From Octopus sinensis (Eukaryota): a DNA stretch of 64,000 nucleotides. How positions within the stretch are numbered: position 1 is the first letter of the stretch; the number at the start of each line of letters is the position of its first letter. The stretch covers positions 2,542,001 through 2,606,000 of the forward strand of contig NC_043025.1 of the NCBI RefSeq assembly GCF_006345805.1, in the 5' to 3' direction. The notes beneath the pieces are model-generated. The model was given only the letters and a program-made list of their open reading frames with translations, was not told the DNA's origin and ran no database searches. Shown one piece after another: positions 62,073 to 62,867 of this stretch. Made by a program: the position numbers and the translations under genes.

Positions 62073-62867
62073 ATAATAGTTATCGCCATACTAATATGTC
62101 ATTCTTATAAAAATAAGAATAAAGCTGTCCGCTTATTAGCTCCATGAGGCCATCGCCTTAAGTTAGCTATTTGATACACAAACTGTATCCATATAACCTT
62201 CGAACAAGGGAGGTTAGTCGCTCCACACTACTTGACCGGCAGCTACAGACGCGTTTCGGGGTATTGCCCCTTTTCAATGCAGCGTAGCCAGACCAGTAGG
62301 TGTCGCTTCTGACAATCTCTGTTCGAAGGTTTTATTTACCAGCTTCGGTGGAATACATCCACTTGTTTTCAATAATAGAAATATTAAAATTACTAAGTCT
62401 TTCTAAAAGAGAACAACGGCAGCGTTTCCGGAAAATAATAGTTATCGCCATACTAATATGGCATTCTTATAAAAATAAGAATAAAGCTGTCCGCTTATTA
62501 GCTCCATGAGGCCATGGATGTATTCCACCGAAGCTAGGTAAATAAAACCTTCGAACAGAGATTGTCAGAAGCGACACCTACTGGTCTGGCTACGCTGCAT
62601 TGAAAAGGGGCAATACCCCGAAACGCGTCTGTAGCTGCCGGTCAAGTAGTGTGGAGCGACTGACCTCCCTTGTTCGAAGGTTATATGGATACAGTTTGTG
62701 TATCAAATAGCTAACTTAAGGTGATGGCCTCATGGAGCTAATAAGCGGACAGCTTTATTCTTATTTTTATAAGAATGCCATATTAGTATGGCGATAACTA
62801 TTATTTTCCGGAAACGCTGCCGTTGTTCTCTTTTAGAGAGACTTAGTAATTTTAATATTTCTATATT
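62073..62867. mobile_element. Hammerhead repeat: 1.2 tandem units followed by about one inverted unit
   Basis: Units start at 62073 and 62435 (362 bp), with the inversion junction near 62515. HHRs at 62238-62289 (-) and 62588-62639 (+). (TA)n on both sides. Confidence 0.9.
62588..62639 (+). ncRNA. Type I hammerhead ribozyme, predicted cleavage after C62629 (GUC)
   Basis: ggctac-gctgca-TTGAAAA-GGGG-caata-CCCC-GAAA-CGCG-TC-tgtagc-tgcc. Confidence 0.87.

Follow-up and report, generated by a model that had tools for sequence, protein, structure and literature searches.

The locus described here contains 1.22 units of a 362-bp repeat in direct orientation (62073-62514), followed by 0.97 unit in inverted orientation (62515-62864; 350 bp, 98-99% identical to the direct part). 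It lies between two (TA)n tracts of the window, by which we mean the whole 64-kb stretch of Octopus sinensis DNA that was analysed (Table 1). The strand switches at 62515, where one base is common to both sides. This bears out the initial annotation, which had described 1.2 tandem units turning near 62515 into about one inverted unit. The direct and inverted arms are identical at 286 of 290 positions (98.6%) and differ at five sites, at four of which the inverted arm carries the state of the related copies at 37 kb. Two blocks of the direct arm (62073-62340 and 62375-62515) together complement the whole of the inverted arm. On the ribozyme strand the outer ends of both arms face outwards, which makes 62515 a head-to-head join. 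A microhomology of 1 nt or more is found in 44% of random joins, and the junction is also spanned by a 6-bp inverted repeat (62503-62508/62513-62518), spotted post hoc, of a kind present in 3.1% of 3000 random joins.

Table 1. Features of the 62-kb locus and of its relatives, in window coordinates
Feature	Position	Strand	Basis or remark
Left (TA)n tract, putative insertion target	61977..62075		TRF
Probable retrozyme unit D1, 362 bp	62073..62434	-	Left end is the family's common start position, the putative reverse-transcription start
Partial second tandem unit D2 (unit positions 1-80)	62435..62514	-	80 bp
Inversion junction at 62515	62503..62518		1-nt microhomology and 6-bp inverted repeat
Inverted unit (unit positions 289 to 1)	62515..62804	+	Arm alignment
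60-nt extension, or tail (unit positions 362 to 303)	62805..62864	+	Present at this end only
Right (TA)n tract	62862..62938		TRF
Predicted type I hammerhead motif of D1	62242..62283	-	Core -62277; predicted cleavage between 62248 and 62247
Predicted type I hammerhead motif of the inverted copy	62594..62635	+	Core +62600; predicted cleavage between 62629 and 62630
Imperfect hairpin arm of about 140 nt, extending helix I, hammerhead at its tip	62546..62682	+	Folding, z -7.75
Second young locus, 2.65 tandem units, not inverted	37362..38319	-	Between TA-rich tracts; 95-98% BLAST identity
Old truncated relative, 76% identity	15432..15653	-	Same start position, within a TA tract

The 362-bp repeat is likely a non-LTR retrozyme. 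Several features used to define this class (PMC7229834) are present: a tandemly repeated unit within the range of about 170-400 nt, one hammerhead motif per unit, a GC content below 45% (40.3% in the unit), a non-coding sequence (the longest ATG ORFs have 39 aa on the ribozyme strand and 11 aa), and a predicted circle that is highly self-paired. The ORF with reverse transcriptase (RT) and GIY-YIG domains of an autonomous Penelope-like element (PLE) is absent from the unit. A profile search of the window with five copies returned no family members beyond three loci, all of which start at the same unit position and adjoin a TA tract, and the 62-kb locus is the only inverted copy among them. Hammerheads are spaced 358-362 nt apart in the family. 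An active retrozyme locus is expected to carry at least two consecutive hammerheads on the same strand; the 37-kb locus has three on the minus strand (cores 37560, 37918 and 38280, the middle one with a mismatch in helix II), whereas the 62-kb locus has one per strand. The 62-kb insertion is probably a defunct example of a small parasitic RNA of a type already described. The 37362-37713 unit contains many short deletions and is 92.8% identical to D1, compared with 97-98% for the neighbouring units; the deletions could be sequencing errors beside a long TA tract or could reflect faster decay.

The old relative at 15 kb has an empty-site counterpart. The region 50340-50571 is a paralogue of the host repeat 15252-15719 and carries an uninterrupted TA tract, which means that the TA tract predates the insertion. 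The old copy also gives a limited view of structural conservation, as covariation is drawn from two lineages only and this copy is without the 5' strand of the long hairpin arm. One clean compensatory change keeps the 8-bp hairpin equivalent to 62757-62776, and a second two-sided change, in helix II, falls within a decayed and uncertainly aligned stretch; five of the six pairs of the GATAC hairpin are broken.

The family carries a predicted type I hammerhead ribozyme, for which self-cleavage is likewise predicted. A relaxed type I descriptor, built on the generic hammerhead core pattern and used without a shuffle control, gave nine matches in the window, counting both strands. Of these, five are from the 362-bp family (cores +62600, -62277, -38280, -37918 and -37560) and four are other motifs. 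All five young units covering the site have the core with a U3-A8 pair and a GUC triplet, that is, a Watson-Crick 3-8 pair and an NUH triplet. The architecture comprises a 6-bp helix I, a 4-bp helix II and a palindromic 2-bp helix III, with an internal loop after helix I and a loop 2 of 5 nt, where any loop 1-loop 2 tertiary contact would have to form. Rfam returned no matches at the gathering score for the whole window, and among its five matches at E<=10 for 61900-63000 there was no hammerhead family, so that the ribozyme call rests on the descriptor match and on folding. The exact 30-nt hammerhead pattern had no matches in bacterial and archaeal genomes. The initial annotation had placed hammerheads on both strands. 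One motif does lie on each strand of the locus, but an ambisense design does not follow, since each unit has a single hammerhead on a single strand and its presence on both is a trivial consequence of the inversion.

Folding supports part of the proposal that the ribozyme sits inside a long rod. All five complementary pairs named beforehand lie at or near the places given for them (62546-62557/62671-62682, 62564-62568/62660-62664, 62578-62582/62645-62649, 62688-62692/62700-62704 and 62757-62764/62769-62776). For the 141-nt arm the folding energy is -65.7 kcal/mol (z -7.75), a value that none of 200 shuffles reached, and here the rod description holds; the rest of the circle is multibranched. 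In the comparison of circular folding with shuffled controls that the initial annotation had proposed, the monomers have z-scores of -5.2 and -6.1, with none of 100 shuffles as good in either case. The antisense strand folds about equally well (z -5.6), so that the z-score cannot tell which strand is functional, and the value for the whole 795 nt (z -57.8) merely reflects the inverted duplication. In the circular monomer, helices I and II have probabilities of 0.94-1.0 and helix III of 0.0. The helix III palindrome can self-pair between copies over 6 bp (-8.9 kcal/mol), and such predicted pairing is consistent with dimeric hammerhead action. Viroid-like and HDV-like RNAs are rod circles with ribozymes in both polarities. 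The 362-nt unit resembles them in its small predicted circle and its hammerhead, but its circle is branched, its ribozyme lies on one strand, and the two-strand state is a DNA-level inversion. A whole-circle rod and an ambisense viroid-like or HDV-like design were accordingly rejected.

Read-through of the inverted locus is predicted to give a nested, near-perfect duplex of 288 bp between 62073-62361 and 62515-62804, on either strand, which is shorter than the approximately 350 bp of double-stranded RNA (dsRNA) foreseen in the initial annotation. An alternative 141-bp helix overlaps this duplex and is weaker (-243 versus -559 kcal/mol). In both read-through strands the hammerhead helices have a probability of 0.0; together with the single hammerhead per strand, this implies that no circle would come from the 62-kb locus, whereas the 37-kb locus could supply one. 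Hyper-editing is very high in octopus, where it is linked to loci that form dsRNA, and a lizard Penelope element is heavily edited (PMC5625713), which makes editing plausible if the locus is transcribed. A role of the 62-kb duplex as an ADAR or small-RNA substrate would likewise be plausible for an octopus. Among the young units, two of 13 substitutions are A>G on the ribozyme strand. This is no excess, in a count that has low power, registers only edits fixed by retrotransposition and leaves out indels and misaligned columns in the most divergent unit.

The surrounding window is repeat-rich, with many (TA)n tracts and decayed retroelement ORFs. A survey for local inverted repeats gave six rows at four loci, the 62-kb locus and three others, and the inverted-insertion layout is thus ordinary in this genome. 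One of the three (21884-22950) is a 5'-truncated GIY-YIG-like element (Pfam E 0.001, below the cut-off). It sits between TA tracts and has a terminal copy in inverted orientation as well as a tail of about 40 nt. It carries a minimal-hammerhead-like motif at about 22785-22828 with one core change, and a related end is found at 16064-16221. The second (21555-21830) has 105-bp inverted arms, a 7-nt spacer and a right extension of about 64 nt, also between TA tracts, and is of fold-back type. The third (18805-19529) is a nested inverted structure: its outer arms are about 168 bp long and 86% identical, its centre is a 162-bp palindrome, and it also contains an internal direct repeat of 66 bp. Further U3-A8 hammerhead-like descriptor matches at 61846-61890 and 21353-21390 could be due to chance; the former adjoins the left TA tract of the 62-kb locus and weakly resembles 18841-18889 (73%, E 0.049).

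Four regions of decayed ORFs (23410-24920, 32400-32852, 11990-12430 and 46394-47656) look like PLE reverse transcriptases. Pfam named none of these four, while naming 6 of the 15 window ORFs overall, and protein searches on the PLE-like ORFs returned one unnamed match for 23410-24489 and none for the GIY-YIG piece. The stretch 47237-47656 has an Atlas lead to RVT_1, at 19% of members. For the RT fragment at 29331-30377, the two best matches are Octopus bimaculoides proteins with 77% and 85% identity, which fits an octopus host, imperfect as retroelement proteins are as markers. A 113-bp tandem repeat (2.0 copies, 91% matches) occupies 63395-63615, with further decayed copies apparent downstream, and a run of 100 N at 15964-16063 marks an assembly gap.

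The dependence of retrozymes on PLEs is an already published hypothesis, while both the mobilisation of retrozymes and the formation of PLE inverted repeats have been called open in the literature, the latter in PMC8557442. We consider it probable that the 62-kb locus results from a single insertion of a 362-nt retrozyme into a TA microsatellite by the reverse transcriptase and endonuclease of a PLE, with cDNA likely primed from both cut target strands. The locus carries the PLE signature of a partial tandem, a head-to-head inverted truncated copy, a one-sided tail and a (TA)n target, although target-site duplications are unreadable inside TA tracts. PLE insertions have been reported with a partial tandem, an adjacent inverted truncated copy, a tail of 30-40 bp at one end and a bias towards microsatellites (PMC3846280; PMC8557442), and a preference for (TA)n is recorded for octopus Naiad PLEs (supplement of PMC8557442). 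Moreover, a purified PLE protein cuts and extends both target strands and uses two internal start sites, the spacing of which equals the tail (PMC11167929).

The positions of the ends bear on the nature of the template. Measured downstream from the predicted cleavage site, the common start position of the family lies at 175 nt and the right end at 235 nt, 60 nt beyond it, and the three young segments of 442, 350 and 958 nt all cross that site. From these starts, a linear monomer that had been cleaved could serve as template for no more than 175 or 235 nt; the fixed ends together with the over-length copies therefore argue that the template was likely circular or an uncleaved multimer. Shared variants between units, sought in order to tell these two templates apart, were not present. 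Both outer ends, including the start of the tail at 62805-62864, sit in the unit's only two ATAATAG motifs, while the unit has 14 ATA sites; the coincidence is weaker if any ATA can prime, since two of the remaining 13 ATA sites fall within an ATAATAG motif. The start site used by the PLE protein in vitro is not homologous to the cut DNA (PMC11167929), so that a common motif need not mean annealing.

The sequence of events would be as follows. Tandem loci such as that observed at 37362-38319 would give rise to RNA that self-cleaves and circularises, and the circle or an uncleaved multimer, rather than the cleaved linear monomer, would serve as template. Priming from the left target end at unit position 1 would produce 442 nt of cDNA, and priming from the right target end 60 nt further downstream, at position 303 and in the same motif, would produce 350 nt, the second priming taking place either on the same RNA (twin priming) or on a second RNA (dual priming). 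End-joining would then connect the two cDNA ends head to head at 62515, perhaps once snap-back synthesis had added a few bases. The product is predicted to be inert as a retrozyme, as it has one hammerhead per strand and the antisense copy, transcribed first, would sequester the hammerhead in the 288-bp duplex. The use of Penelope machinery, also proposed in the initial annotation, gains from the insertion layout and, by inference, from the neighbouring GIY-YIG-like element with the same layout, and it loses from the lack of a partner PLE terminus in the window. In a search of the window for a PLE terminus related to the unit, by BLAST, the five-copy profile and shuffle-controlled alignment, none of nine candidate regions beat all 60 shuffles. 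This result counts against the reading as a whole, as do the silence of Rfam, the unformed helix III in the monomer, and a tail of 60 nt against the published 30-40 bp.

Of the alternative routes to the same layout, the main rival keeps the element and the Penelope enzymes but lets the cDNA snap back and prime itself to form the inverted arm, followed by a template switch. We regard this as unlikely, yet it is kept alive, as a rival or as a minor finishing step, by the 6-bp inverted repeat at the junction. The complementarity of the whole inverted arm to the direct arm also suits it, as do the near-perfect central palindromes (21555-21771 and 19204-19365) of two other inverted insertions in the window. 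Self-priming has been proposed for PLEs, being favoured by Arkhipova et al. for PLE inversions (PMC3846280), and snap-back is documented for R2 (PMC11371274). On the other hand, it would call for two switches, the first a jump on 1 nt of homology, and after them for a chance stop at the second ATAATAG motif. The arms have no private variant in common, four of their five differences being the 37-kb state, an argument that is uninformative if all changes post-date the insertion. It is much less probable still that two independent insertions of opposite orientation entered one TA tract and were fused by deletion, or that a longer tandem array was rearranged. TA tracts do draw repeated insertions, a PLE-like end with a hammerhead-like motif at 61851 adjoins the same tract, and the arms differ at five sites; but their identity of 98.6% is high, the junction is without a TA remnant, and elements unrelated to this one, both in the window and in print, also join head to head and have a tail at one end only.

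Whether the inversion exists in the genome at all is a separate matter, and we attach only a very small probability to its having been created during assembly or library preparation. Inverted PLE structures do cause difficulties in assembly (PMC8557442), and the window contains the 100-N gap. In a fold-back chimera one arm would be mirrored together with its flank, and such a chimera, in its simple form, was rejected: neither arm mirrors the other, the flanks are unmirrored and the arms differ at five sites. The inverted arm continues across a unit-to-unit junction, whereas the mirror position on the left is TA tract; conversely, unit positions 290-302 are present in the left arm and missing from the right one. 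A chimera joining two separate genomic copies is a possible origin of the inversion. We give hardly any credence to the idea that the layout is itself functional, as a selected source of long dsRNA for ADAR or for small-RNA silencing of the family, or as an ambisense viroid-like replicon. The near-perfect duplex predicted on either strand would suit such a role, as would the exceptional hyper-editing of octopus and the edited lizard Penelope (PMC5625713). The lack of an A>G excess (2 of 13 among the young units) speaks against it, as do the single-strand hammerhead of the unit, whose antisense strand has none, and the youth of a copy that shares the 64 kb with three other inversions of this sort. 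The locus probably plays no special part as a dsRNA source, an octopus genome having many such inversions.

Much of what is seen here is already in print, namely retrozymes, the proposal that they depend on PLEs, the inverted ends and tails of PLEs, U3-A8 cores and opposite-strand hammerhead pairs. A literature search by title and the start of the abstract, thin on subscription papers, returned no octopus retrozyme, inverted retrozyme insertion or PLE twin priming, and supplements may list an octopus family. Metazoan non-LTR retrozymes, such as the Mytilus repeats of about 350-390 bp, resemble the 362-bp unit in being tandem and non-coding with a GC content below 45%, in having one canonical type I hammerhead per unit, and in a highly self-paired predicted circle that leaves the ribozyme helices free (PMC7229834; 10.64898/2026.07.22.740005). 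They differ in their C3-G8 core pair, compared with U3-A8 here, and their sequences are species-specific. The accessible parts of the same two sources describe no inverted copies, tails or fixed ends for retrozymes, unlike what is found at 62 kb, and a term search in those parts gave no passage on an octopus or inverted retrozyme. A predicted ribozyme may also fail at the bench, as eight of nine predicted Xenopus retrozymes did not cleave in vitro.

Compared with PLE insertions, the 62-kb locus is alike in its layout, its (TA)n target and a putative internal reverse-transcription start downstream of the hammerhead (PMC3846280; PMC8557442; PMC11167929). PLEs are unlike it in having an RT/GIY-YIG ORF, hammerheads about 3 kb apart and of the minimal type, and a tail of 30-40 bp. 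Hammerheads of Schistosoma PLEs share the U3-A8 covariation and occur in opposite-strand pairs 100-700 bp apart (PMC4209133). They are minimal, whereas the hammerhead of the 362-bp unit has a 6-bp helix I with a long extension and a 4-bp helix II; together with a short palindromic helix III, these lengths correspond to the canonical metazoan type of Cervera and de la Pena, who also described dimeric action through helix III palindromes (PMC4209133). In L1 elements, twin or dual priming from two ends likewise gives head-to-head inversions (PMC2837659). The L1 fragments do not overlap and carry poly(A), while the arms at 62 kb overlap almost wholly, because the template repeats, and have no poly(A). 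R2 snap-back yields antisense copies at 5' junctions (PMC11371274).

What is new at the 62-kb locus is the combination in one place, a likely retrozyme with the full Penelope integration signature. With somewhat less than even confidence, we read the locus as a junction-level footprint of an ORF-less ribozyme circle that Penelope reverse transcription inserted from both ends, using two fixed internal start sites. If this is true, the hypothesis that retrozymes ride on Penelope, which now rests on co-occurrence and terminal-repeat trees, would gain a mechanism, and twin priming on a circular template would also account for the inverted pseudo-LTR and the tail of Penelope elements themselves, which have long lacked an explanation.
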